Source: Bacilli bacterium
GTDB lineage: Bacteria; Bacillota_I; Bacilli_A; RF39; UBA660
Reading direction: 5' to 3'
Assembly (NCBI GenBank): GCA_030602345.1
Contig: JAUVZX010000001.1
Span: 131,251 to 195,250 of the forward strand
Length of the DNA: 64,000 bases
In this document: positions 43,602 through 64,000 of the stretch, piece by piece
Layout: every line of letters starts with the position of its first letter
Numbering within the stretch: position 1 is the stretch's first letter
Position numbers and translations under genes: made by a program
The notes under the pieces: model-generated
What the model saw: only the letters and a program-made list of their open reading frames with translations
Database searches by the model: none
Told to the model about the DNA's origin: nothing

Positions 43602-43942
43602 GGGGATGTCACGGTTTCGACGAATCTCTCGAATATTAGATGGCAAGTCGTGAGGATTGCGTTAAGTCCAAAATAAAATTAAGTGGAAACACATATAATT
43701 TAGCATTCGCTTAAAAAAATAACGATGCTGCTTTCCTCTTTCCATCCTACGGGAAAGAAAGAAGGCTCGAATTAGTAGGATATACTTATATAGGTGCTTA
43801 ACTATATAAAAGAACAAATAAAGCTCACTAATTGTTAGATTTTCAATTATCTTTAGATTAGGACATTAATTAATTGAATAAGCTTGTAGATATCTAAGGT
43901 TTGAATTTTCGGACAGGAGTTCAATTCTCCTCATCTCCACCA
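43602..43942 (+). ncRNA. ssrA: tmRNA (SsrA)
   Basis: The 5' end GGGGATGTCACGGTTTCGACG pairs with the 3' end …GGACAGGAGTTCAATTCTCCTCATCTCCACCA (tRNA-Ala-like acceptor/T-arm with CCA). The internal tag reading frame ends …GNTYNLAFA followed by TAA. Confidence 0.9.
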
Positions 43943-47483: not shown

Positions 47484-47927
47484 TTATTTGTTTAAATGTT
47501 TTAAGGTAGACGCTATTTCTCTTTCAGTATCTTTTTTCTTAATTGCTTCTCTTTTATCATAAAGTTTTTTACCCTTTGCAATAGCAATTAAAATTTTAGC
47601 TCTATTATTCTTAAAATATAATTTCAAAGGAATAATAGTTTGTCCTTCTATATTTTTAGCATCTTTTAATCTAAGAATTTCTTTTTTATTTAATAGAAGC
47701 TTCCTCGTTCTAGTTTCTTCATGATTAAACACATTACCCTTGTCATAATGACTAATATGCATATTTAAAATATATGCCTCATCATTCTTTATAGTAATGA
47801 AACTCTCTTTTAAGTTAGCATTTCCTTTTCTAACCGACTTTATTTCAGTTCCTAAAAGAACAATGCCCGCCTCATAAGTATCTTTTATTTCATAATCGAA
47901 ACTTGCTTTACGATTTAGTATTTCCAC
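47484..47927 (-). CDS. smpB: SsrA-binding protein SmpB
   Basis: …NRKASFDYEIKDTYEAGIVLLGTEIKSVR…TRKLLLNKKEI… is canonical SmpB. Confidence 0.92.
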   Translation of the reverse strand: MEILNRKASFDYEIKDTYEAGIVLLGTEIKSVRKGNANLKESFITIKNDEAYILNMHISHYDKGNVFNHEETRTRKLLLNKKEILRLKDAKNIEGQTIIPLKLYFKNNRAKILIAIAKGKKLYDKREAIKKKDTEREIASTLKHLNK

Positions 47928-50028
47928 GTTTCTTTTCCATTCCCTTCAAAACAAAATCAATCGTCTTAGCTTCTTTATTAGCCGCTGCTACTACTACTTC
48001 TAATTCTTTACCAATTGAATACTTAACAGTACCACTTGTATTTTTGATTGACATTGTCTTTTGATCATAAGTAAAACGATCTTTACTATTATAATTTAAA
48101 TCTTCTAATCTTATTAAACCTTCAATTAAATTAGGAAGTCTAACAAATACACCAAACGATGTAACTGAAGATACTACACCATTAAATTCTTCCCCTATAT
48201 GTCTTTGCATATATTCAGCTTTTTTCATATCGTTAACTTCTCTTTCACATTCAACTGCTTTAATTTCTTGTGAAGAAGAGTGACTTGCAATAAATGCTGC
48301 CTTATCTGCCCATTTAGCATGATTTTCAGGAGTATCCTGTTTATTAAATAAGAATGTTCTTAATATTTGATGAACGGTAGTATCTGGAAATCTTCTAATT
48401 GGTGATGTAAAATGAGCATAGTTTTGTAAAGATAATCCATAGTGACCAATATTATTTGTACTATAAACCGCTTTTTGCATTGTTCTTAAAGCAAAGTCAG
48501 CAAATATTTCATAATTGGGTGTTTTCTTTAATTCTGCTAATAATAATTGGAATGCCTTTGGCATCTCTAAATCTGATTGTTCTTTTATAATTATTCCATT
48601 TAATTTAACAAAATTTAAAAAGTTTTGAACTTTTTCTTCACTTGGAGCAGCATGTATTCTATTAACAAAAGGATATTCCTTTTCCTCTGCTATAACTGAA
48701 ACAGCAATGTTAGCTTCAACCATGAAGTCTTCAATTAACATCTCAGCATCATCTCTAACACGCTTTACAACATCAATTGGAAATCCCGTTTCATCGACAA
48801 TAATTTTTACTTCATTAGTCTCAAAATCAATCATTCCATTTTTGGTTTTTTTAGCTCTTATTTTCTTAGCAAATTTATCCATCTTTAAAATGGTATCTAC
48901 AAACTCTTCATAACCCTTTGGAATTCTGCCATCCAAAATTTCATTAACTGCAGTATAAGTCATTCTCTTTTTAGAATGAATAACACTTGGATAAACTTTT
49001 CTATCAATAACACTTCCATTTGAATCATATTTTATCTCACAAGTTAATGTCAAACGATCAACACCTTCATTTAAAGAACAAATACCATTTGATAATTTAT
49101 GTGGAAGCATCGGAATAACTCTATCAGTTAAATAAACCGAAGTTCCCCTTTGTAATGCTTCATTGTAAATTGGAGTTCCCTCTTTAACATAATGGGTTAC
49201 ATCTGCAATATGAATTTTTGCAGTAAATGTACCATCTTCATTTTCAAAATATGATATTGCATCGTCTAAGTCTTTAGCATCTTCTCCATCAATCGTGAAA
49301 TTTAATTCATCTCTTAAATCTACTCTTCCAACTAAGTCTTCTTCTGTTACTTCTGTTTTAATTTTAGCAACTTGATCCATTACTTCTTTAGGAAAAACAT
49401 CATTTAATTTATGTTTTCTAACAATCGATAAAATATCTATTCCCGGATCATTTTTATGCCCTAAAACTTCTTCTACTCGACCTTTATACAAACCTTTAAC
49501 AGGCTTATCATCATATAATTTAACAACTACTTTATGACCGTTCATTGCACCTTTAGAAACTGCTGGGTCAATTTGAATTTGCATGTTAACTTTTTTATCA
49601 TCTAGATCAACATATCCCATGCCCGCTTTATAATAGAACTCTCCAACTAAACCATCTAAATTTCTTTTAGTTGTAGCAACAATTCTACCTTCTGATTCTC
49701 CAAATATTTCAATTAAAACTTCGTCATTATGCAAAGCTCCATTTAAATTATCCGAAGATATATAAACATCATTACCTGTTTCTAATTTAACGAATCCATA
49801 ACCTTTTCTATTAGCAATAAATGTTCCTCTTTTAAAATTAGTATATTTAAAATCAATATATTTTTGCTTATTAGTAAAATGAATTACATGATTAGTTACT
49901 AACTCATTTAATATTTGTAACATCTCTTTAAATTCTTGAGTTTTATTCAAACCTAAAAAACGTGCAATTTCTTCCCCCGTGTATGATTTATTATTCTCTT
50001 GTAAAAATTTTAATATTCTCTGCTTCAT
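47908..50028 (-). CDS. rnr: Ribonuclease R
   Basis: 706 aa with cold-shock-like N-terminal, RNB catalytic (…DGEDAKDLDDAIS…) and S1 C-terminal domains. Adjacent to smpB as in B. subtilis. Confidence 0.9.
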   Translation of the reverse strand: MKQRILKFLQENNKSYTGEEIARFLGLNKTQEFKEMLQILNELVTNHVIHFTNKQKYIDFKYTNFKRGTFIANRKGYGFVKLETGNDVYISSDNLNGALHNDEVLIEIFGESEGRIVATTKRNLDGLVGEFYYKAGMGYVDLDDKKVNMQIQIDPAVSKGAMNGHKVVVKLYDDKPVKGLYKGRVEEVLGHKNDPGIDILSIVRKHKLNDVFPKEVMDQVAKIKTEVTEEDLVGRVDLRDELNFTIDGEDAKDLDDAISYFENEDGTFTAKIHIADVTHYVKEGTPIYNEALQRGTSVYLTDRVIPMLPHKLSNGICSLNEGVDRLTLTCEIKYDSNGSVIDRKVYPSVIHSKKRMTYTAVNEILDGRIPKGYEEFVDTILKMDKFAKKIRAKKTKNGMIDFETNEVKIIVDETGFPIDVVKRVRDDAEMLIEDFMVEANIAVSVIAEEKEYPFVNRIHAAPSEEKVQNFLNFVKLNGIIIKEQSDLEMPKAFQLLLAELKKTPNYEIFADFALRTMQKAVYSTNNIGHYGLSLQNYAHFTSPIRRFPDTTVHQILRTFLFNKQDTPENHAKWADKAAFIASHSSSQEIKAVECEREVNDMKKAEYMQRHIGEEFNGVVSSVTSFGVFVRLPNLIEGLIRLEDLNYNSKDRFTYDQKTMSIKNTSGTVKYSIGKELEVVVAAANKEAKTIDFVLKGMEKKRGNTKS

Positions 50029-51779: not shown

Positions 51780-53975
51780 CTATTCTTCATCATCACTAAA
51801 GAAATCATCAAAGAATTGATCATCCGTTATTTTGAATGGCTTTTTCTCTGGTATAACTTTATCTTCTACCTTAATCGGTGTTTCTATTTTTGGTTCTACT
51901 CTAATATCTCTAGCTAAATCAACCATTTTTGTTTCCTTCAACGGTGTTCCTGATACCTCAAACTCATTTGGAACAATAAATTTAGGTTTAACTTCTTCCA
52001 CAACTGTTTTTTCTTCTATCATTGGCTCTGGAGCAACAAATTTTCTTTCTTCCATTATTGGTCTATCCTCAATGATTGATTGAGTGATAGTTTCAGGTTG
52101 TTGGAAAACAGTTCCACCATTTTCTTCCTCAGCCTCTTCGGCTGCTGCTATTCTAGCATCAATTCTTTTCATAATTGCATCTATATCAATTCCTGAGTCA
52201 AATGATGACATTGAATCAGCCTGACTATCAAAGAAGTTAGGAGCACCAAATGGTTTTTCCTTAGGTTTAGATTGATTTCTATTATCGACAAATTCTTTCA
52301 AATTAAATAATTTAAGAGGTCTAATTTCCCTTGGAGTAAACTCTGCTTTAGGGTATTTTTTACCCCAATTCATTTTATAATTAAATTCTAATTTAGTTTT
52401 AAATGGAGCTTTTCTAGTTCTTAAGATAACTGCCTCTCCCATTTTTAATTGTTGTAAATCACTTACAGTAATTAAAGGCGTTGAAGCTGTTTTATCTTTT
52501 TCTTTAGATTTCTTTTCTCCAGCCATTTTACTTATTTCTTCTAAAGCTGAAAGTTCACTACTAATTAAGTAAACTATGTTACCACAGTTACCCTTAATAG
52601 TTTCTCCATTTTCTTTACCATAAACTTGATAAAGCTGTGAATAGTTTTGAATAATAAATGTCATTCTAATCAATCTAGAACGAGCTGCTGTAACCATTGT
52701 AGTAACATCCTTTAAAGGAGGCATATTTGCAAACTCATCTAAAATGAAGTTAGTACGATATTTTAATTTACCATCTGGATTTTCTTGAGCAACATCGATT
52801 AACGATTCATAACATTGTTTAATAAATGTTGTAACTAAAGGATGGAGTGTTTTCTTCTCATCTTGCACAATCAAGAAAACTGCTGTTTTTTGTCTTCCAA
52901 TTCCCTTCATATTAATGTCATTATATGCTAACATTTCTGAAATATTTTCTCTTGCTGCAAATAATTTGATCTTTTGATAGAAAACAGCAAATATACTATT
53001 TTTAGTTTCCGCTGCTGCAACCAAAACACTCGCTAAGTTAACATAAGCGGGACTAGATGGATCTTTAGTTGAAAAATACTCTTTCAAGTAAGTTCCACTT
53101 CTAAATCTTTCTTCTCCTAAAGCACTCATTAAATTAATACTATTAATATTTATTTGTTCTTCAGTAGCATCTTCGAATAACGCTAATGCTAATCCAACAA
53201 AGTAATTAGCTGCTGTTTTTTCCCAGAAATCATCTGCTTTATTTTTTTCATCATATAAGATATTAATGGCTAAATCATCTAAAAGTTCAATTGCTTTGTC
53301 CTTATCACCACTTTTATATAATTCATAAGGAAGAATCAATGGATTCCATGCGGAACCTTTTTGTGGCTCACGAAAGTTTAGAACAATAACATTATATCCT
53401 CTTTTTCTAAGTTCAACAGCATTATCGCGGTAAATTTCACCTTTAGGATCGGTGATAATCATTGATTCCCCTTTCTTAGCTAAAAGCTTAACTAAAGGCA
53501 AAACGACTAATTGAGTTTTACCACTACCAGTAGAACCGATGACTAAGTTATGATATTCACCATTGTCTACCCATAACTCTTTACCATCATTAATAAGAGG
53601 AATTCCCGCTGCAGTTGTAACTTCTTCAGAGGGCAAAACTCTTGATAATTCTTTCTTCATATCTTTGTTTTTAGAAAAAGTGTTATATCCACCTTTATCT
53701 TTTTTACCAAAAGTGAATCCAAATCCTTCTTCCATTTCGAAAAACATAGACGATCCTTGAGTAAGAATCAATCCTAAAGAAAGTAAATAAAGAGATATAG
53801 TTGGCCATATAAATTCATCTGTAAAAACTTTTAATGGATTAAATCCATGAAGCGTTGTATCGCTAGCAAATTGAAATAAATTCAACACAACTAACGACAC
53901 TAAATAAAACATTACAATCAATAGAATTATAAATGCCCATAAATGTTTAGCCTCTGCCTTAATTCTTAATTTCAT
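51780..53975 (-). CDS. Type IV secretion coupling protein (VirD4/TraG/TraD family T4CP)
   Basis: Two N-terminal TM helices, Walker A VIGSTGSGKTQ and TraG-family blocks (…ITDPKGE…, …FILDEFAN…). Extended acidic C-terminal tail. Confidence 0.85.
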   Translation of the reverse strand: MKLRIKAEAKHLWAFIILLIVMFYLVSLVVLNLFQFASDTTLHGFNPLKVFTDEFIWPTISLYLLSLGLILTQGSSMFFEMEEGFGFTFGKKDKGGYNTFSKNKDMKKELSRVLPSEEVTTAAGIPLINDGKELWVDNGEYHNLVIGSTGSGKTQLVVLPLVKLLAKKGESMIITDPKGEIYRDNAVELRKRGYNVIVLNFREPQKGSAWNPLILPYELYKSGDKDKAIELLDDLAINILYDEKNKADDFWEKTAANYFVGLALALFEDATEEQININSINLMSALGEERFRSGTYLKEYFSTKDPSSPAYVNLASVLVAAAETKNSIFAVFYQKIKLFAARENISEMLAYNDINMKGIGRQKTAVFLIVQDEKKTLHPLVTTFIKQCYESLIDVAQENPDGKLKYRTNFILDEFANMPPLKDVTTMVTAARSRLIRMTFIIQNYSQLYQVYGKENGETIKGNCGNIVYLISSELSALEEISKMAGEKKSKEKDKTASTPLITVSDLQQLKMGEAVILRTRKAPFKTKLEFNYKMNWGKKYPKAEFTPREIRPLKLFNLKEFVDNRNQSKPKEKPFGAPNFFDSQADSMSSFDSGIDIDAIMKRIDARIAAAEEAEEENGGTVFQQPETITQSIIEDRPIMEERKFVAPEPMIEEKTVVEEVKPKFIVPNEFEVSGTPLKETKMVDLARDIRVEPKIETPIKVEDKVIPEKKPFKITDDQFFDDFFSDDEE

Positions 53976-53983
53976 ATGACCTC

Positions 53984-54634
53984 CTATATAAATTTTTTAT
54001 TCTTTTGTTTTATTGTTAAATATATACCAACAATCAATAACATTATTGGTCCGAAAACTAATGCTAATACAACCATAAAGTTATCAAAAATTGAAGTACT
54101 TGCACTAGCACTAGTTAAATCAAGTTCAAAACTAATTGGTTTATTATTACTTAATTTCAATTCCCATATATGAACATTATTATCACTTTTATCAGCATTA
54201 CTATTTTCTATTTCAAATGGTGACTTAATAATTAGTTTTAAATTATCTACTTCACCAAAACACTCGAAGTTACCATTAGTGTTGAATATTACCTTATCAT
54301 CTTTCTTTTCAATAGTTGTTTTACTATAACAACTAGTAACAAATGGAGTCCAAGCTAAATATTCATCATAACTAGATTTATTATTAAATTTTAATCCTGA
54401 TAAAGTATCACCTATAACTTTTTCTTTAGAATATACATACATCGGATTAGTTATCTCATCATTCATCCAAATTATAAATTGGAGTTCTGATTCTAAATCT
54501 TCGCCGATTAATTCATTTTCCTCTAAAACAGTTATATTTTCATCGATAAAATTACCATCAATAGTTACTTCATAAGTAACGCTACATCCAGTCAAAAGAA
54601 ACATAAACATTAAAATTAGTAGTTTCTTTACCAT
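53984..54634 (-). CDS. Conjugation-associated lipoprotein, hypothetical
   Basis: Lipobox LLTGC (MVKKLLILMFMFLLTGCSV) and a C-terminal TM helix, translationally coupled between the hydrolase and the T4CP. Confidence 0.5.
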   Translation of the reverse strand: MVKKLLILMFMFLLTGCSVTYEVTIDGNFIDENITVLEENELIGEDLESELQFIIWMNDEITNPMYVYSKEKVIGDTLSGLKFNNKSSYDEYLAWTPFVTSCYSKTTIEKKDDKVIFNTNGNFECFGEVDNLKLIIKSPFEIENSNADKSDNNVHIWELKLSNNKPISFELDLTSASASTSIFDNFMVVLALVFGPIMLLIVGIYLTIKQKNKKFI

Positions 54635-56202
54635 CTTCCACCACTACACACATTTCTTGCTTGTATACATACATTGGCATCTTCTCTATAAGGAGTGCAA
54701 CCCTTAGCATATAAAAACTCTTCAGGATTATATGTTTGTTTTTTACCACTTAATAATTCAAAATGTAAGTGGGTCGCTGATGAGCAACCAGTATCTCCCA
54801 TGACACCAATAAACTCGCCTGATGCTACTGTAGAACCAATCATTAAATTAGGCGCCACTGAATCTAAATGGACATATTTAGAATAAAATTTTTCTACTTT
54901 TCCATCTATCATAATTTCATGTTCTAATGTTACTATTCCTGCAGGACATTGAGAATAAAAACATATTGGTTTTCTAGTCCATACTGGTCTACAATTAATT
55001 CCACTGCGGTTAATTGCAACTACTTTTCCTGGAGCAACCGCATAAAGAAGAGGCTTACCACCATTGTTTCCTATATCAACACCAGCATGCGAATTACAAT
55101 TATTTGGTCCATAAAAACCAAAACATCCCGTCTGCCTACAAGGTTGAGTCCCTAAAGGACTAACTAATATATCTAACATTTCTTGAGGTATTGCTCCTGC
55201 TTTACCTGAACCAGAAATTGTTTCACCCTGTAAATAAGTTATATCTTGAACAGCAAAAGCATTTCTAATTGAATAAACCTCTTCAATAACACTATCAAAG
55301 AAAGCTCCTTGCCCTTCGTTAGGAATGGCAACATCTATGCTCCTTAATTTATCTTCAATATAATTTTCTTTTATCCATTTATCATATTCAGCCTTTGTTT
55401 TCAACATGTAAACATCTTCTTCTGATACGGTAAAACTCATTGTTTTAGTTAATAAACATCCCTTGTCATCTTTTGCACATACTGTCTTATCTTCAAAAGA
55501 CTGTGGCTTATCTATTTTAAAACAAACATTGTTACATGTAGAATCACTTCCACAAACTTTAGAATCGTTTTCTTTAGTTGTCGTTGTTGAATCACAATCA
55601 CCAAATCCTTGAACTATAACTTGCCCGCTAGGTAATGTTTCAGTAATTAATTGACATTGATTTTTACGTATAACTGTTGTTTCAGTACAAGTATAAATCA
55701 TATTTTTATAAATCATATTATCGATTAATTCTACAGCTTCTTTTTCTAACGCCTTATAATTTAATTTTTTTTCTTCAAAACAATCTTCTAACTCTTCCTG
55801 AGTACATTCAATATTGGCAGCATCAGGATCACCATAGTATATGAATGCTAATACTAGGTTCATGTCTACCGCTACTCCACGGTCTTCCCAATATTCTTTT
55901 CTTTCTTCTAAAACATCAACAAAAGCTTGCAATTCAGGACTTCTGATTTCTTTACCACTTTCGTCTAATCTAGAGTTATTACCTCCAAAGAAAGACATAA
56001 ACGGTGCTAAAACAACTGCTAAAATTATAATTACTGCAAATAAAGGAATTAATATAGGGATTGCTGAAACAAAAGCAGTTGCTAACCACATTTTAAATTT
56101 CGATTTTATTGCACCACCAAGAAAACTGGTGACACCACCAGCTTGATCGACTTGATTCAAAGTATTTTTAAAGTTTTTGAGCCCGTTTAAAAAGTTTTTC
56201 AA
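54628..56202 (-). CDS. Membrane-anchored M23 peptidase (T4SS cell-wall hydrolase, CwlT/TcpG analog)
   Basis: N-terminal TM helix, a Cys-rich middle region and a C-terminal M23 domain with HxxxD (HAGVDIG) and HxH (THLHFE) motifs. Confidence 0.75.
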   Translation of the reverse strand: MKNFLNGLKNFKNTLNQVDQAGGVTSFLGGAIKSKFKMWLATAFVSAIPILIPLFAVIIILAVVLAPFMSFFGGNNSRLDESGKEIRSPELQAFVDVLEERKEYWEDRGVAVDMNLVLAFIYYGDPDAANIECTQEELEDCFEEKKLNYKALEKEAVELIDNMIYKNMIYTCTETTVIRKNQCQLITETLPSGQVIVQGFGDCDSTTTTKENDSKVCGSDSTCNNVCFKIDKPQSFEDKTVCAKDDKGCLLTKTMSFTVSEEDVYMLKTKAEYDKWIKENYIEDKLRSIDVAIPNEGQGAFFDSVIEEVYSIRNAFAVQDITYLQGETISGSGKAGAIPQEMLDILVSPLGTQPCRQTGCFGFYGPNNCNSHAGVDIGNNGGKPLLYAVAPGKVVAINRSGINCRPVWTRKPICFYSQCPAGIVTLEHEIMIDGKVEKFYSKYVHLDSVAPNLMIGSTVASGEFIGVMGDTGCSSATHLHFELLSGKKQTYNPEEFLYAKGCTPYREDANVCIQARNVCSGGRW

Positions 56203-56223
56203 AAAATCACGTCCTTATTTCTT

Positions 56224-58014
56224 TTATAAGCCCCCACCAGAACCGAATGATTCTAGCTCTTTTTCAGTTACGATAATGCGCATTTGCATTCTTCTACTAC
56301 CACATACAAATAATGCATCTCCCTGTTGATAGCGCTTAATACTATCTTTTTCATTTTCATTTAAATCAATTAATTTAGATAAATCATCAACAGCTTGTTT
56401 TTTAAGACCCATAACTAAGTAGTATGAGGCATTATCAAATATAGCTTTACCTTGTGTGATTACTTTAGGATCGCTAAAGTCACTTGGTTGTTGAGTAACA
56501 ATTATTGTTCCCGTGTTATATTTACGAGATCTTCTTTGTACTTGTGCTAAGAACTCAGCTCCTAAAGTGTTATTCCCACTTAATAATACGTGAGCCTCTT
56601 CAACAATTAATGCTGTATTAACTGTTCTATCTAAAGTTAATCCCCATGCATATTTCAATATATTGAAAAATAATGCATTTCTGATATTAATATCAGCATT
56701 CATAATTTCACGGATATTAAATACAATAAAATTACTATCCGGCTTAATCGTTGTATGACCATCAAAATAATACTTTAATTCTTTTGTGATAGGTCTAATT
56801 TTTAATTCTAATCTTTCCATTATGCTCTTCTCGTGAGATGCATCTGGCATAGACATTAATCTTCCTTTTATAGTTGAATATACATCTGAGAAGGTTGGAT
56901 AATCAGCTGATGTATAATTTGAAAAATCTGTATCAAAATCGATACCAAAACGTTTATAAGTATCCATAACTGTTTCACTAAATAAAGTTAAAACATCATC
57001 TTCAATATCGGGTGAATAATACTTAATAAAAGCCTTTAGCGTCTGTAAAGTTCTCGTTAAGACAGCATGTCCTAACCCTTCTTTCATTTCTTCTTCATCA
57101 AAATCTAAAATTACTTCTAAAGGATTGATCATACCGTGAGTTCCACCTAAACCTAAATTGATAAAGTCTCCATCATAAAGTTTAGTCATATCCTCAAGTT
57201 CACCTTCTGGATCAATTGCAACTATTTGGTAATTATTTCTAATATGACTTCTCAAAATCAATTTAGCAGCAGTAGATTTACCACTACCAGAAGTTCCTAA
57301 AACAATCATATTAGCGTTGTTTCTATTATGTTCTTTCTTAATTTGATATAAGAATTGGTTAAATAAAATAACCCCTCCAGAGAAGTCTACTCCTAATAAA
57401 GTAGCCAATCCTTGGTCTTTAATGCTATCAAAGATAAATGGATACATTGCTGCCATCGTTGGCGAAGGCATAGGTGTCCCAATTCTATTTTCAACATCTT
57501 GATTTGGAAAAATAGGAACAATTGACTTAAGAACTTTCTCTTGTTCGAAAAGTAAAGTTACTCCTCTCATCTCCATAGCTTCAATATAATTTTTTACTTG
57601 TAAATATTGGTTTTCTAATTCCTCTTGTGAATTAGCAGTAATCATAATATGCATCTGAAAATCATATATCTTTTGATTAGTTGACGCCATATTAACAATA
57701 AACTCTTCTAAAGATTGATAATCTTGACGAATTCTTTCTTGAATAGTTTTATCATTTTCTTCTTGATATCTTTGTTTTAATTCAGCAATTTCTTTATTTA
57801 ACATCTTTCTAACAGATGAAAAAGGAAGAGGAATATGCTTAATAACAACTTTAATTCCTGTCATACTAGTTAAAGTAGATAAATATCCGGTTGAAATATA
57901 TCTTGGATATGAAATGATTGTTAAAATTCTTGCATACTTATCACTGATAAGAAAATCCTTAGTTCTAAATTGTACACCCTTAGGTGCTATTTGACTTCTA
58001 ATATCCATTTGCAA
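56224..58014 (-). CDS. VirB4/TraE/ConE-family conjugation ATPase (C-terminal 596 aa part)
   Basis: Walker A LGTSGSGKST and Walker B ALIVEEAHVLL with VirB4-like flanks. It starts at a TTG directly after an in-frame TGA. Confidence 0.85.
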   Translation of the reverse strand: MQMDIRSQIAPKGVQFRTKDFLISDKYARILTIISYPRYISTGYLSTLTSMTGIKVVIKHIPLPFSSVRKMLNKEIAELKQRYQEENDKTIQERIRQDYQSLEEFIVNMASTNQKIYDFQMHIMITANSQEELENQYLQVKNYIEAMEMRGVTLLFEQEKVLKSIVPIFPNQDVENRIGTPMPSPTMAAMYPFIFDSIKDQGLATLLGVDFSGGVILFNQFLYQIKKEHNRNNANMIVLGTSGSGKSTAAKLILRSHIRNNYQIVAIDPEGELEDMTKLYDGDFINLGLGGTHGMINPLEVILDFDEEEMKEGLGHAVLTRTLQTLKAFIKYYSPDIEDDVLTLFSETVMDTYKRFGIDFDTDFSNYTSADYPTFSDVYSTIKGRLMSMPDASHEKSIMERLELKIRPITKELKYYFDGHTTIKPDSNFIVFNIREIMNADINIRNALFFNILKYAWGLTLDRTVNTALIVEEAHVLLSGNNTLGAEFLAQVQRRSRKYNTGTIIVTQQPSDFSDPKVITQGKAIFDNASYYLVMGLKKQAVDDLSKLIDLNENEKDSIKRYQQGDALFVCGSRRMQMRIIVTEKELESFGSGGGL

Positions 58015-58543
58015 TCACCGTCCCAAATCTAGTTTCCATTCCTCCATTTAAGAAGTTTTCCAAGACGATTCTCATATCTTCATTAGTTGTTTGATATGCT
58101 GTCATATTAGCCCCAGCAAACGCCCCAATTAAGTCACGAATCTTTTTCTTAGCCTTTTCAGGATCTTTTTCTTTAAATAATAAATAGTATTCGGTATCAA
58201 CTACATTATTATTTGTAAATTGATTAGCTTTTTCAATATCTTGAACAATTAGTTTTCTCCTTGATAATGAACCAGCATTGTTATATAAGGCTTGTAATTC
58301 AGATAAATATACGTTTATATCAACAGGTCTATCTGCTACTACTAACCAAAATTCATAATCAATTTGATTATAAACATTCTTTAGATTATTAATCATCATT
58401 TGTTCTGTAGAAGAATCTAAGATAAAAATGTTTTTAGGCATAATTTTTATACCTGCAACTTTATAATTATTATCTAAAATAATCATTCCCTCTCTAATAT
58501 CTTTAACCGGAACAAACATACTTGTATTATTCTTCGAAGCCAT
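57998..58543 (-). CDS. VirB4-family N-terminal domain encoded as a separate 181 aa ORF (split gene or frameshift)
   Basis: …FVPVKDIREGMIILDNNYKVAGIKIMPKNIFILDSSTEQ… matches the N-terminal domain of Gram-positive VirB4-like proteins (Orf16/PrgJ/TcpF type). It overlaps the 596 aa ORF by 17 nt in another frame. 181+596 aa approximates a full-length VirB4. Confidence 0.55.
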   Translation of the reverse strand: MASKNNTSMFVPVKDIREGMIILDNNYKVAGIKIMPKNIFILDSSTEQMMINNLKNVYNQIDYEFWLVVADRPVDINVYLSELQALYNNAGSLSRRKLIVQDIEKANQFTNNNVVDTEYYLLFKEKDPEKAKKKIRDLIGAFAGANMTAYQTTNEDMRIVLENFLNGGMETRFGTVIANGY

Positions 58544-58844
58544 CTTTATAATCCCAACCTTTCCAATAATAATTTTGATTATCTATAAAGTAAAACTTAA
58601 ATATTGTTTTAATTATATGAAGCACATTATGATAATTAGGAATAGGCATAACTAATAGTCCTGTGATTGCTCCAGGTGCTAATGCTATTACTGTAAACAG
58701 TAGTTTCTCCATCGGAAGAGCTAAAACTCCAACGAATGAAAAGAAAACTCCTACTCCAAATATTATCAAATCTATTTCTCTAAATGCTCCAAAAATCAAT
58801 AATGATCTTTTTGAGTTGGCCGGTATTAAAAATTGTCTATCCAT
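58527..58844 (-). CDS. Small two-TM membrane protein (VirB3/ConD-like position)
   Basis: 105 aa with two hydrophobic helices. It lies immediately upstream of, and overlaps, the VirB4 N-terminal ORF, the typical position of VirB3. Confidence 0.35.
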   Translation of the reverse strand: MDRQFLIPANSKRSLLIFGAFREIDLIIFGVGVFFSFVGVLALPMEKLLFTVIALAPGAITGLLVMPIPNYHNVLHIIKTIFKFYFIDNQNYYWKGWDYKDGFEE

Positions 58845-58875: not shown

Positions 58876-61101
58876 TTAATCGATGATATCTATATCATCT
58901 TTTTTAGGCATATCGAATCTATCCGCAATATCATACCTAGACATATCTGGTTTTTCAAAATTATTTTCAATGTAAGCTTTATTAGCGGCAATTTCTTTTT
59001 CTGCCTTCTCATCTAAATATGTCTGATTTTCCTTTTTACCAAAAACTGATTCAGATTTTGGTTGTTGTTTAGAACCACCTTCAGATGATGAAGACTCTGT
59101 TATATTAACTTTAACTGGTTCAGATTTTTTAGAGCTTTTATTCATTGCATCAAATAACTTAGCATCCGCTTTTGCTCCTTCGTAAGCTTTCATATCTGAT
59201 GCCACTGAAGGATTGTAATTAAGTTCTATTTCATAATTAGATTTAGCTCTTTCCAAATTAACACTAGCTGATGTCAAGGCTTTTCTAGCTTCCTCTGCTT
59301 CACTAATTAATGTTGATTTATACTCTTGATTTTGTTTAACAGTGGCATCGTAATTCGATTTTGCTGCTTTAACTTGTTCAATTAATTCAGGTGAGCTTTC
59401 ACCACTCTGAATTCTTTTATTAAGCGTTTCATATTTAGTCCTTGCTTCCTCTTGTTTTCCGAGCATTTCAGAAGGTATGGCACCACTTTGAATTCTCTTA
59501 ACAAGAGTTTCATAATTAGATTCTGCACCTCTTTTGATTGTTTTCATAGTTTCTACTTCATCATAAGCTTTCGACAAAGTTTCGTCTCCTTTAAATATAA
59601 CATCTTTAATAAACGCTCTTTCTTGTTCTAGATTAGCTTGAGCTTGAGCTTTAGTTTTGATATTTGCAAGAGTTTTAGCATCTAAAGGTGCATTAGTTTC
59701 TTTCATCATATCTTTTATCATTTGAGTTTCTATTTCACTAGCGCGCCCTTCATTTCCTAAACTTCTTTTATCTCTTTCTCTAACGAATTCTGCACCACGT
59801 TTTCTATCATAATCTAAATCTTTCTTCTTATCTCTAGATTCTAATGCTTTCGTTCTTTCAGTTCTCAATGATTTAAGTGTATTAGTTCCTCCCATTGCAG
59901 GAACAGCATCCCATCCTTTTTTAAATCCAGAATTAAATCTCTTACCGTGCATTTTAGCATCTATACCAGACGTTGTTGCACCTGCAAGTTTTCCTGCAAG
60001 AGGAATTCCCATAAGCTTTTTCCATGGACTAAGCCCTAATCCACCAGAAGGTTCTTTCATACCAACCATAGAATATATTAATTTAGGAGCTATCTTAACA
60101 AACATTAAGATACCAAAGATAATGAAAATTGCTCCTAAAGGAGAAACTGGCCCAGATTCTGCGATCCCTAATTCGTTATAACGATATACAGTAGGAATTA
60201 TTCCTCCACCAAATATTTCGGCAATCAAGAAGACTGCAAAATATATTAAGGATAGTCGCATAAATAAGTCAACAAATGTTGTTGTAACTTCTGAAATCCA
60301 CGCTTTTAAAGCATCACCTTTTTTTGGATCAATCGATAAAATAATAGGTACCGGAGCAATCAATTGTAAGAATGCAAGTTTTACAGATCTTAATGCTATT
60401 TCAAAAGCAAAAGATATCATTAGAAATGCTGCAAATGCTCCCGCAATAGAAGATACTATCGTTGAATATCTAAATACATATTGATTTCCTGAAGTTAAAT
60501 TTATCAATGGGTGAAATTCAAAAATAGATGAATTAGGATTTGTATATGTTCTTTCAGCATTAGGATTTCCATAATTTATGCTTCCATCATTGTTTTTTGG
60601 TAAATTTGGAGTAAAGAAAGCCCTAAAAGTAATGCCCGCTATTACATTACCTGCAGACTCTCCCGTATCCACTATCGCATTTGCATTGTCAGAAGAACCT
60701 AATATTAATGATGGTAATATTCCCTCATTAAGAATTAAATATTGGAATCTAAATAAATTAGAAAATATTGTTGGAATTAATATAAGCAAAGTTAAAGCAA
60801 TAAGTATTTTTTTAACTAATTGCTTACCACCAGCTTTAGAATCATAAAAGTTGTCTGGGTTAAGTAACATATTTAATAGAGCTAATCCCGTTTTAAACAA
60901 AATAAATAAACCAATAATTATATATATTCTTTGAGTAAAGTTGACAAAAACTCTATCTGATAAAACAGCTATCCCGGCTAACTCATTAATCAATCCATAG
61001 GCTCCAGAGATTAATAAATAAATTCCTAAATCTATGAAAAACATAATTGAACGCCAAGCATTTTGAACCCAATCGGCATTAAGAATTAGAAACATATTCA
61101 T
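58876..61101 (-). CDS. VirB6/TrbL/ConG-like polytopic T4SS channel protein with coiled C-terminal extension
   Basis: ~8 TM helices in the first 420 aa. The C-terminal 300 aa are hydrophilic with internal repeats (YETLVKRIQSGAIPSEMLGK / YETLNKRIQSGESSPELIEQ). The start was moved to MNMFLIL to avoid overlap. Confidence 0.5.
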   Translation of the reverse strand: MNMFLILNADWVQNAWRSIMFFIDLGIYLLISGAYGLINELAGIAVLSDRVFVNFTQRIYIIIGLFILFKTGLALLNMLLNPDNFYDSKAGGKQLVKKILIALTLLILIPTIFSNLFRFQYLILNEGILPSLILGSSDNANAIVDTGESAGNVIAGITFRAFFTPNLPKNNDGSINYGNPNAERTYTNPNSSIFEFHPLINLTSGNQYVFRYSTIVSSIAGAFAAFLMISFAFEIALRSVKLAFLQLIAPVPIILSIDPKKGDALKAWISEVTTTFVDLFMRLSLIYFAVFLIAEIFGGGIIPTVYRYNELGIAESGPVSPLGAIFIIFGILMFVKIAPKLIYSMVGMKEPSGGLGLSPWKKLMGIPLAGKLAGATTSGIDAKMHGKRFNSGFKKGWDAVPAMGGTNTLKSLRTERTKALESRDKKKDLDYDRKRGAEFVRERDKRSLGNEGRASEIETQMIKDMMKETNAPLDAKTLANIKTKAQAQANLEQERAFIKDVIFKGDETLSKAYDEVETMKTIKRGAESNYETLVKRIQSGAIPSEMLGKQEEARTKYETLNKRIQSGESSPELIEQVKAAKSNYDATVKQNQEYKSTLISEAEEARKALTSASVNLERAKSNYEIELNYNPSVASDMKAYEGAKADAKLFDAMNKSSKKSEPVKVNITESSSSEGGSKQQPKSESVFGKKENQTYLDEKAEKEIAANKAYIENNFEKPDMSRYDIADRFDMPKKDDIDIID

Positions 61102-62449
61102 AACCTCCCATACTTGGAACACAAGTATTAATTTTAAATATTGAGAAAGTCATATTTAATAGAGATGGCAAAAGAGCAAGTAAGAACATTACTATAATTC
61201 TTGTTGTAAAATTCTTCCAAGCTTTTTTCATAGCCTCTGGTTTTTCTGAAGTGACCGCTCCAAAGAAGTCGAGCATTCCTAATATAATTAATGAAATACC
61301 TGCAAATATTAATATCAAATTATACATATCTTTCAAAAAATTAAATAATCTTCCAAAAGATGAACATGTTAGTGGACCAGGATTATATATTAATTTCAAA
61401 CCGCTAGATAGCTCAAATGATAAATCACCACGACTCACTGAATACAAATCCGCATTAACATCATGCACACTTTCAGTCATAAGGAAACATTTGGCATTTA
61501 GAGATGTTTTAGATAATTTAGCTCCATCGCCATTTTCATTAGGACAGAAGTAAATATTTGGATTTAAATATTGATCTTCTTTATCAAAAAAATCGGAAGC
61601 CTTTAATGAACTAACATCTAAAAGTGAATTTGATAATACTTTTGTGGTTGATTCAACAACTTGTCTAGCACCACCTGTAATCTTTTGCTCTACTTTAGAA
61701 TAATAAGTAACCGCTAAAGTGTTATTTTGCATTCTTAACCCAACGGTCCCATTAAGATCTCTTAAAGTTTTTCCGCTTGAATAGTCCAGTCTTACAGAAT
61801 TATTTTTTATTGTTGGTTGAACAACTCCAGATTTAGAAGTATTTAAAGTTATTCTTCCTGTTCCTATAACTGATTGATTAGCAAAATCAGAATGATTAGA
61901 TTTATAATCATTGTAAAAAGGTTTAACGTCATAATAGATTCTAATCATATCCTGGCTACTATTTTTTTTTATAAAAGCTGCATGATTTATAGCAGGACAA
62001 ACAATAGATTTATCGTTTTTCATAAACGATATATCATTTATGAATGAAGTCTCATTTATATTATCTAATTTAAATACTGCACTAAGCAAATGTGATTGAG
62101 CTTTTTTGATTTTAAGATCACCAATTTTTGCAGTAGAAGGAGGCCACTCGTTTTTAGTAAGAATTTCATAATTACCATAACCACCTGTTGCACCAGTAAA
62201 TTTATGCGATTGTGATTTTAAGCTTCCGTTTTCCATAATAAAAGTTGCTTCTACAAATAAAACTAGTTTATCAGCATCTGATGGAATAATTTCCAAATTA
62301 TATACACAAGTTGCTTGTCCAAATTGAGGACTACCACCATCCCACTGCAATTCATTTATACTATTACCACTAACAAATCCAGGAATAAACAACATTCCTA
62401 GCATTATTAAAAAGAACGATATTTTTGTACTTTTTTTAACTTTTTCCAC
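61079..62449 (-). CDS. Secreted, C-terminally membrane-anchored T4SS-associated protein, hypothetical
   Basis: Signal peptide MEKVKKSTKISFFLIMLGMLFIPGFVSG, a ~380 aa extracellular domain and two C-terminal TM helices. Confidence 0.4.
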   Translation of the reverse strand: MEKVKKSTKISFFLIMLGMLFIPGFVSGNSINELQWDGGSPQFGQATCVYNLEIIPSDADKLVLFVEATFIMENGSLKSQSHKFTGATGGYGNYEILTKNEWPPSTAKIGDLKIKKAQSHLLSAVFKLDNINETSFINDISFMKNDKSIVCPAINHAAFIKKNSSQDMIRIYYDVKPFYNDYKSNHSDFANQSVIGTGRITLNTSKSGVVQPTIKNNSVRLDYSSGKTLRDLNGTVGLRMQNNTLAVTYYSKVEQKITGGARQVVESTTKVLSNSLLDVSSLKASDFFDKEDQYLNPNIYFCPNENGDGAKLSKTSLNAKCFLMTESVHDVNADLYSVSRGDLSFELSSGLKLIYNPGPLTCSSFGRLFNFLKDMYNLILIFAGISLIILGMLDFFGAVTSEKPEAMKKAWKNFTTRIIVMFLLALLPSLLNMTFSIFKINTCVPSMGGYEYVSNS

Positions 62450-62550: not shown

Positions 62551-62910
62551 CTACTTTTTATAGCAGCTTGATGAGTTTGTAATTAAACAGTTTGCACAAC
62601 CCATGATTCCTTTGTTAGAAGCATTAGCGTTACCAAGTAATGAGAACACAACTTGAACGATAGATACAACTAGGAATACAAGTATCGCTGCAATTAAACG
62701 TTTCATGAATATAGCTTGTCCTTTTTTAATGTCATCTTCTTTACCTTGAGTAATTGCTTTGAATAAATCCAAAGTACCCATAAAGATTAACACTACTGGA
62801 ACTGCTATTTGAATCAATCTAAATAGAGTTGATAATAGGAATGGAATTTCTCCTGGAATAGACATGTTAAGGAACCCTTCACATCCTACAAAAGTGTTTA
62901 ATAAATACAT
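62551..62910 (-). CDS. Small two-TM protein, possible VirB2/TrbC-like conjugative pilin
   Basis: 119 aa, strong RBS AGGAGGT. Two long hydrophobic helices separated by a short charged loop, and a Cys-containing C-terminus. The topology is typical of VirB2-class pilins. Confidence 0.3.
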   Translation of the reverse strand: MYLLNTFVGCEGFLNMSIPGEIPFLLSTLFRLIQIAVPVVLIFMGTLDLFKAITQGKEDDIKKGQAIFMKRLIAAILVFLVVSIVQVVFSLLGNANASNKGIMGCANCLITNSSSCYKK

Positions 62911-63967: not shown

Positions 63968-64000
63968 TGTTTCACCTTCTTTTAATTAAAAATTACTTTT

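Follow-up and report, generated by a model that had tools for sequence, protein, structure and literature searches.

A VirB4 ATPase encoded by two overlapping genes in a type IV secretion cluster of a Bacilli bacterium

VirB4 and its neighbours in described systems

Full-length VirB4 proteins of type IV secretion systems (T4SSs), such as TrwK of R388 (823 amino acids, aa), VirB4 from the integrative and conjugative elements (ICEs) of mycoplasmas, or the 780-aa homologue P0128, are single polypeptides of approximately 780-900 aa. In R388, residues 15-400 of VirB4 make up its N-terminal domain, around which VirB3 is wrapped (PMC9259494). The subject of this text is the VirB4 of a T4SS cluster in a stretch of 64,000 nucleotides (nt) from a Bacilli bacterium (assembly GCA_030602345.1, contig JAUVZX010000001.1, positions 131,251 to 195,250 of the forward strand; the whole stretch is called the window hereafter). 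It shares domain content and order with the full-length proteins, and the neighbouring genes common in their systems (VirB3-like, VirB6-like, hydrolase, and VirD4-like) are found in the window as well. Unlike the full-length family, however, the window VirB4 is encoded as two polypeptides, cut at a linker after approximately 180 residues: a stand-alone N-terminal module (N-module, 181 aa) and an ATPase subunit (594 aa). With high probability this is a genuine two-polypeptide VirB4, which arose by natural gene fission and is most likely translationally coupled.

pIP501 is a functional conjugative plasmid, and its transfer region resembles the window in gene order. In pIP501/pRE25 and pSK41/pGO1, the TraC-TraD-TraE genes (TrsC-TrsD-TrsE) encode, as in the window, a VirB3-like protein, a soluble protein of ~210-227 aa, and an ATPase of ~650-670 aa:

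pSK41: TraC, a small membrane protein; TraD, 227 aa; TraE, VirB4-like ATPase, 672 aa
pRE25 (pIP501-type transfer region): TraC; TraD, 209 aa; TraE, VirB4-like ATPase, 653 aa

The genes of pSK41 and pRE25 lie 10-14 nt apart, whereas those of the window overlap. TrsC of pGO1 is the accepted VirB3 homologue (PMC4027160). A 2025 review of T4SS nomenclature gives traC and traE of pIP501 as "immediately adjacent" and leaves traD undiscussed (PMC12857230); contrary to this adjacency, the 209-aa traD lies between traC and traE in pRE25 (L096, 21976-24977).

A second group of relatives is formed by plasmids of Bacillus thuringiensis, where a tblastn search of PLSDB located the N-module in 36 conjugative-type plasmids; a blastn search of the PLSDB plasmids with the window locus gave no match. 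The RefSeq annotation of one of them, pBMB67 (NC_009841.1), lists in this order a MobP3 relaxase, a VirD4-like protein, a TrbL-family protein, a PrgI-family protein, a 227-aa hypothetical protein, and a 630-aa "DUF87 domain-containing protein". The 227-aa protein matches a profile of the N-module at about E 1e-23. Proteins of this kind from pBMB67 and from metagenome-assembled genomes (MAGs), which carry the label PF26593, are like those of the window in gene order and junction logic and differ in junction detail, with an 11-nt overlap in the window, TAATG or ATGA in most MAGs, and a 3-nt spacer in pBMB67. The stand-alone PF26593 proteins of MAGs and B. thuringiensis plasmids are annotated only as "hypothetical protein". 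Since the pBMB67-type plasmids are listed as being without experimental proof of conjugation (PMC9673590), they provide no functional proof for such a pair.

Other departures from the one-chain plan have been described. In the same kind of system, pIP501 offers a precedent with TraI and TraJ, a T4SS ATPase that has its N-terminal membrane module on a polypeptide of its own (PMC4981023), but they differ from the split in the window: the ATPase is of the VirD4 type, the module is a transmembrane anchor, and the proteins are non-homologous. In some Gram-negative systems, VirB3-VirB4 fusions illustrate an evolutionary plasticity in how VirB3, the N-terminus of VirB4, and the ATPase are delimited (PMC12102498), albeit in the opposite direction, i.e., by fusion instead of fission. 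A search of full-text literature retrieved neither an explicit "split VirB4" nor an explicit role for TraD/TrsD, and no statement that TraD is part of VirB4; subscription literature may differ.

Two overlapping genes with the content of one VirB4

A preliminary description of the window had announced two overlapping VirB4 open reading frames (ORFs). Both are present on the minus strand, and their coordinates, sequence, and frames had been given correctly. ORF A (58543..57998) encodes 181 aa from an ATG start to a TAG stop at 58000-57998, and ORF B (56224-58014) encodes 596 aa if read from TTG 58014, or 594 aa from ATG 58008. The minus-strand junction is AGATTTGGGACGGTGATTGCAAATGGATATTAGAAG. 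It agrees exactly with the earlier quotation. Frame A ends F-G-T-V-I-A-N-G-Y-TAG and frame B opens TGA-TTG-CAA-ATG-GAT-ATT-AGA, the TGA (58017-58015) standing directly before the TTG. Frame B is +1 relative to frame A, and the ORFs overlap by 17 nt when counted from the TTG, or by 11 nt when counted from the ATG. The features of the pair are:

57998..58543, minus strand: gene of the N-module, a stand-alone protein of 181 aa, PF26593 "TraC-like", ending NFLNGGMETRFGTVIANGY-TAG
56224..58008, minus strand: gene of the ATPase subunit of VirB4, 594 aa when read from ATG 58008, with Pfam and NCBIfam matches and a conserved N-terminus
57998..58008, minus strand: 11-nt stop/start overlap, ATGGATATTAG, the ATPase start codon lying within the last four N-module codons
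58014..58024, minus strand: Shine-Dalgarno (SD)-like element, GGGACGGTGAT, in the last conserved upstream codons (G-T-V), 5 nt before ATG 58008
57274..57297, minus strand: Walker A, with GTSGSGKS at residues 238-245 in the 594-aa form, from a motif search, inside the P-loop domain matches
56596..56610, minus strand: Walker-B-like motif LIVEE, residues 467-471 of the 594-aa protein, from a motif search

Thus, the Walker A and B motifs ascribed to the larger ORF are in place, the second as a Walker-B-like sequence. The ATPase ORF matches P-loop_TraG (PF19044, 44.8 bits, cutoff 25.8), AAA_10, and DUF87 in Pfam, and weakly, on residues 23-146, CagE_TrbE_VirB (PF03135; 17.7 bits, under the cutoff of 21). 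That the two products together equal a normal VirB4 of ~780 aa, as first proposed, is borne out by two colinear alignments. In the 894 positions of NF045975, the NCBIfam model of mycoplasma ICE VirB4, positions 100-276 are matched by the 181-aa ORF (E 1e-15) and positions 295-893 by the ATPase ORF (E 1e-103). In the fused protein P0128, which carries PF26593 and the ATPase domains in one chain, N-module residues 10-166 align with residues 15-174, and ATPase residues 5-595 with residues 193-779. Because both ORFs are colinear with one VirB4 model and with P0128, their homology is real, and the two are not a chance pair of ORFs.

The ATPase ORF also matches the VirB4 of the CD1110 family (NF045971, E 5e-49), but reaches neither of the curated equivalog cutoffs (347.8 vs 590 bits for NF045975, the Mbov_0397 family, and 167.3 vs 325 for NF045971). 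It is a relative of both subfamilies and a member of neither. P0121, also of 596 aa, is 68% identical to it from end to end. For the N-module, a profile search against the sequences of Protein Data Bank (PDB) chains returned nothing meaningful (best match thymidylate kinase, E 0.32), and fold comparison was therefore used: the top 14 Foldseek matches of the N-module model are all TrwK/VirB4. A VirB4-type N-terminal domain is thus spread over the two ORFs, ahead of the P-loop (RecA-like) ATPase domain. Given the domain limits in R388 (residues 15-400), the 181-aa protein is about the first half of this domain, while the ATPase ORF, with its Walker A motif at residue 238, keeps the second half.

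An alternative code in which TGA is read as tryptophan, as in Mycoplasma, was considered because relatives are labelled Mycoplasmatota and because a TGA precedes the ATPase start. This was rejected: with code 11, 85% of the window is covered by ORFs of at least 150 aa, five of which end in TGA; moreover, the recoded TGA would lengthen frame B by no more than ~10 codons, up to a TAA, leaving the frames unjoined.

A conserved split and its origin

Relatives were scanned with one genome per species, giving 556 confirmed stretches, from which 80 loci were fetched; the junction was analysed in 88 related loci with 79 distinct junction sequences. The hosts of the 556 stretches are mostly uncultured gut Bacilli, Mycoplasmatota, and Acholeplasma-like MAGs. 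As a query, the 181-aa protein matched 7,673 proteins, the best 120 of which are all 176-207 aa long; 119 of these 120 bear an unmarked PF26593 label, and for the protein identical to that of the window the match is marked "weak". All PF26593 assignments are precomputed labels, as the copy of Pfam used here evidently lacks the model and is silent even on labelled homologues. Identity of the N-module to MAG homologues is 62-94%, and 65 positions are invariant among 30 sequences. The gene order is constant in independent assemblies: a PrgI-like small membrane protein, an N-module of ~180-192 aa, an ATPase of 594-595 aa, and a cell-wall hydrolase. In all 88 loci the N-module and the ATPase are separate ORFs. 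The 79 junctions fall into six geometries, with overlaps of 1-11 nt in 73 of them:

TAATG, 1-nt overlap: 37
ATGA, 4-nt overlap: 23
11-nt overlap, as in the window, from other genomes: 12
1-nt spacer: 5
8-nt overlap: 1
TAA followed by an in-frame ATG: 1

The frame of the ATPase relative to that of the N-module is -1 in 60 junctions, +1 in 18, and 0 in one. Insertions or deletions have therefore been fixed repeatedly at the junction, which is tolerable only if each ORF is translated independently. The preliminary description had held that orthologous elements with two consistently separate genes would indicate a natural split, and this is what the comparison yielded. The two-polypeptide VirB4 of the window is natural and, as one more member of a very large catalogued family, real but ordinary and of low novelty. 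The single junction with both genes in one frame, in L043 (CALVWH010000147.1), has only TAA-ATG between them (GTGATGTAAATGAAT), so that read-through of the stop or one substitution would yield a fused VirB4.

These counts bear on two further explanations raised at the outset. According to the first, a 1-nt indel disrupted a virB4 that had been one gene, leaving a secretion system that is dead or decaying. There are indeed fused homologues of ~780 aa (P0128), and, as had been pointed out, the loss of 1 nt from the ~14 nt that separate the TGA of frame B from the TAG of frame A would suffice to join the frames. However, a pseudogene would appear as a sporadic break accompanied by decay, whereas the split is universal among close relatives, in all 88 loci and in six geometries. 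Both ORFs are full length and conserved, a start codon and an SD element are conserved at the junction, and the neighbouring T4SS genes are all intact. An inactivating frameshift is therefore rejected as extremely unlikely. According to the second, a sequencing or assembly indel split one gene artificially; the window apparently stems from a metagenome assembly (an identical protein occurs on Logan contigs), and indels in homopolymers are common errors. This explanation has a practically negligible probability: the 181-aa protein is found unchanged on two contigs, a 94% identical homologue from another source (P0001) is also 181 aa long and also ends GTVIANGY, and the 11-nt overlap recurs in 12 distinct junctions of other genomes. 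Furthermore, other junction types occur in complete RefSeq plasmids that have been sequenced many times, and the window junction contains no homopolymer longer than 3 nt.

The junction itself carries a second signal. In the 79 junctions, the ATPase starts at the position homologous to ATG 58008, with ATG in 70 and GTG in nine, and always 4-10 nt downstream of GGTG within the near-invariant element GGGACGGTG. The N-terminus of the ATPase is conserved in the 88 loci as MDI[KR]SQIAP, or more broadly M-D/N-I-K/R-x-Q-I-A-P. An ATG or GTG at a homologous position, followed by a conserved N-terminus, identifies ATG 58008 as the real start, and a gene caller applied to the identical contig also begins the 594-aa ATPase there. 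Of the two starts originally offered, the ATG has therefore held, whereas TTG 58014 has not. The element GGGACGGTG encodes G-T-V of the conserved FGTV motif, and does so with codons that the rest of these genes seldom uses (87 loci):

GGG (Gly): 83% at FGTV vs 7% elsewhere
ACG (Thr): 98% at FGTV vs 10% elsewhere
GTG (Val): 100% at FGTV vs 7% elsewhere

The fixation of such codons points to selection on the nucleotides and hence to a ribosome-binding site inside the upstream ORF. The layout of the SD at the ATPase start is GGA(C)GGTGAT, with a predicted anti-SD duplex of -14.9 kcal/mol, computed with the canonical Bacillota 16S tail, which was assumed and not taken from the host organism. This SD is the strongest among 14 gene starts tested in the window; random 22-mers gave -3.6 +/- 2.7 kcal/mol, with 1.4% at or below -11. 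The preceding junction, between the PrgI-like and the N-module genes, is built alike, with a 17-nt overlap and, ahead of the start of the N-module, an SD-like sequence (-13.7 kcal/mol).

With its SD-like element lying just a few nt before a stop codon, the overlap is superficially reminiscent of prfB. Conceivably, then, programmed recoding (a +1 frameshift or transcriptional slippage) could yield a fused VirB4, with GGGACGGTG acting as a stimulator as in prfB or dnaX. Yet the relative frame varies between -1, +1, and 0, and the sequence between SD and stop is variable, so that no single shift site or direction could serve all loci, which excludes an obligatory programmed frameshift. In addition, the 14-nt stretch of the junction (TTGCAAATGGATAT) contains no slippery motif, all 79 junctions have a start codon at the homologous position, and in some divergent systems the genes do not overlap, being separated by spacers of 3 nt (pBMB67) and 6 nt (L092). 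Programmed recoding is accordingly regarded as very improbable.

The preferred reading, two separately translated polypeptides, was the third of the possibilities first listed, and the conserved separate genes support it; the coupling that was proposed with it is suggested by the sequence of the junction. The pair displays the features of coupled genes, namely the 11-nt overlap and an SD inside the upstream ORF. The VirB3-like, N-module, and ATPase genes follow one another as three overlapping ORFs, which would be translated in a coupled manner. Ribosomes completing the N-module would terminate at TAG 58000-57998, and the same or freshly recruited ribosomes would start at ATG 58008, just past the strong SD GGGACGGTGAT. 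Such coupling would provide roughly equal amounts of both subunits, i.e., a stoichiometry close to 1:1. By analogy with R388, the free N-module might then dock non-covalently on the ATPase subunit and on the VirB3-like membrane protein, restoring a normal VirB4, because VirB3 wraps around the corresponding N-terminal domain there (PMC9259494).

Fused homologues of ~780-930 aa exist, and in an alignment with seven of them the split point falls in a variable linker of 0 to ~40 residues. In a HMMER survey with the ATPase ORF against representatives at 50% identity, ATPase lengths were bimodal, with 74 proteins at 561-673 aa, 45 at 771 aa or more, and none between. The N-termini of ~37 long proteins are recognised by the N-module profile (E 1e-24 to 1e-2), and no short protein is. 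A rough neighbour-joining (NJ) tree, whose branches are long and poorly resolved and which is taken only qualitatively, mixes split and fused forms; by parsimony, at least 19 changes are needed on it, which points to more than one event of fission or fusion. Some divergent short ATPases were inspected one by one, and an N-module gene lies immediately upstream in each; the upstream proteins match the N-module profile at E 1e-10 to 1e-20:

L091: upstream N-module, 225 aa, ATGA overlap
L092: upstream N-module, 212 aa, PF26593, 6-nt spacer
L093: upstream N-module, 258 aa

A different role for the small protein would be that of an independent accessory factor, descended from the N-terminus of VirB4, next to a 594-aa protein that is a self-sufficient short VirB4. 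TraE of pIP501 alone has been reported to hydrolyse ATP in vitro (PMC4981023), and about 74 of the 119 full-length representatives are short forms, as such a role would allow. Against this, every context examined has the N-module gene directly upstream, in most cases with an overlap; the module is strongly conserved, down to its invariant positions; the interleaving of fused and split forms in the rough NJ tree implies that the architectures are interchangeable; and in R388 the corresponding part of VirB4 is bound by VirB3 (PMC9259494). An independent accessory factor is consequently considered improbable, and the N-module is best regarded as a part of VirB4.

The question arises whether TraD of the model plasmids is the same module. 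TraD of pSK41 is matched over its full length with 31 bits by a broad N-module profile built without this protein, homologues of pIP501-type TraD at 54-80% identity carry the PF26593 label, and hhalign, run with the broad profile, aligned 163 colinear columns with the TraD family (E 7.8e-4). Strands and helices follow one another in the AlphaFold model of TraD as they do in the N-module of the window, and the top PDB match of the TraD model is TrwK/VirB4. The NCBIfam model for the TrsD/TraD family of conjugative transfer proteins did not match the 181-aa protein at E <= 0.01. Taken together, TraD is likely the same module as the N-module of the window.

Several points weigh against this account, both of the window and of its relatives. 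With narrow profiles, hhalign gave no significant match between the family of the window protein and that of pIP501 TraD (E 0.086), and the link to pIP501 TraD draws in part on precomputed Pfam labels. The ATPase ORF stays under both curated VirB4 cutoffs, as is expected for a truncated, divergent member. Coupling, stoichiometry, and association of the subunits in the organism of the window are deduced from the DNA, and occasional recoding, which would give some fused protein, may be compatible with it.

If the TraD link is taken into account, it appears reasonably probable that VirB4 is a two-subunit protein in a large share of monoderm T4SSs, comprising pIP501, pSK41/pGO1, the B. thuringiensis plasmids, and the systems of gut Bacilli and Mycoplasmatota. 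The "hypothetical" proteins of the TraD/TrsD type would then be the first half of the N-terminal domain of VirB4, detached from the rest and expected to dock VirB3, with repeated fission or fusion at one linker and a downstream ribosome-binding site hard-wired in conserved codons. The reviews searched do not state such a reading. For the T4SS field, this would assign a likely role to the TraD/TrsD-type proteins of model Gram-positive plasmids. For annotation, the secretion system of the window is not to be scored as defective, and both ORFs are to be called as genes in their own right, that of the ATPase from ATG 58008 onward. Pipelines that expect a VirB4 of ~800 aa will keep flagging such loci as frameshifted; a conserved N-module gene, a built-in SD, and a variable overlap geometry together provide a rule against this mis-call. 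Moreover, the split marks a natural boundary inside the VirB4 N-terminal domain, which is usable for expression and structural work.

The surrounding secretion cluster

The split gene is embedded in a T4SS cluster, which extends from the VirD4-like gene (51780) to beyond position 64000. Its other recognisable members are:

58527..58844, minus strand: PrgI-like/VirB3-like small membrane protein, 105 aa, two hydrophobic segments, overlapping the N-module gene by 17 nt
58876..61122, minus strand: VirB6-like polytopic membrane protein, 748-aa ORF, NCBIfam MMCAP2_0566-family conjugal transfer protein (E 2.8e-8)
54628..56202, minus strand: cell-wall hydrolase with M23 peptidase domain, 524 aa, Pfam Peptidase_M23 (E 3.6e-13)
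51780..53975, minus strand: VirD4-like coupling protein of the CD1115 family, 731 aa, NCBIfam NF045973 (E 4.3e-89, 299 bits vs cutoff 250)

Orthologues of the PrgI-like protein in L005-L007 match PF26592 (PrgI_like, weak), and the counterpart in pBMB67 is annotated as "PrgI family mobile element protein". The VirB6-like ORF probably starts at ATG 61095 and not at GTG 61122: the SD is -11.4 kcal/mol at the former vs -0.1 at the latter, and the gene caller gives 739 aa on the identical contig. The hydrolase occupies the same position in all contexts seen and is predicted from its domain to serve the VirB1-type function of a monoderm T4SS. Its TTG start (56202-56225, minus strand) is preceded by GGACGTGAT, a bulged "GGA-C-G(G)TGAT" SD as at the ATPase start (-12.2 kcal/mol). 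Further upstream, an ORF of 119 aa (62551-62910, minus strand) has a sub-threshold match to the Pfam family T4SS_pilin (PF18895, 23.1 bits vs cutoff 26.6), and may be a VirB2-like pilin of the system.

Neither the window nor the 10 kb that lie upstream on a matching contig (L097:1-10000) has a recognisable relaxase or integrase; genes in those 10 kb include ones for a 362-aa ATPase of the T2SSE family, for an RcpC-like protein, and for a protein of 905 aa. Downstream of the cluster lie housekeeping genes, including those for a VTT-domain protein, RmuC, RNase R, and transfer-messenger RNA (tmRNA). Given the 556 stretches confirmed with one genome per species, the cluster may be chromosomal and largely vertically inherited, rather than a classical ICE. 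The tmRNA gene (43602-43942, plus strand) encodes the tag peptide GNTYNLAFA. Close to it are the RNase R gene (47908-50028, minus strand) and an ORF of the size of SmpB (47484-47927, minus strand; a candidate only), so that genes of trans-translation are clustered here.

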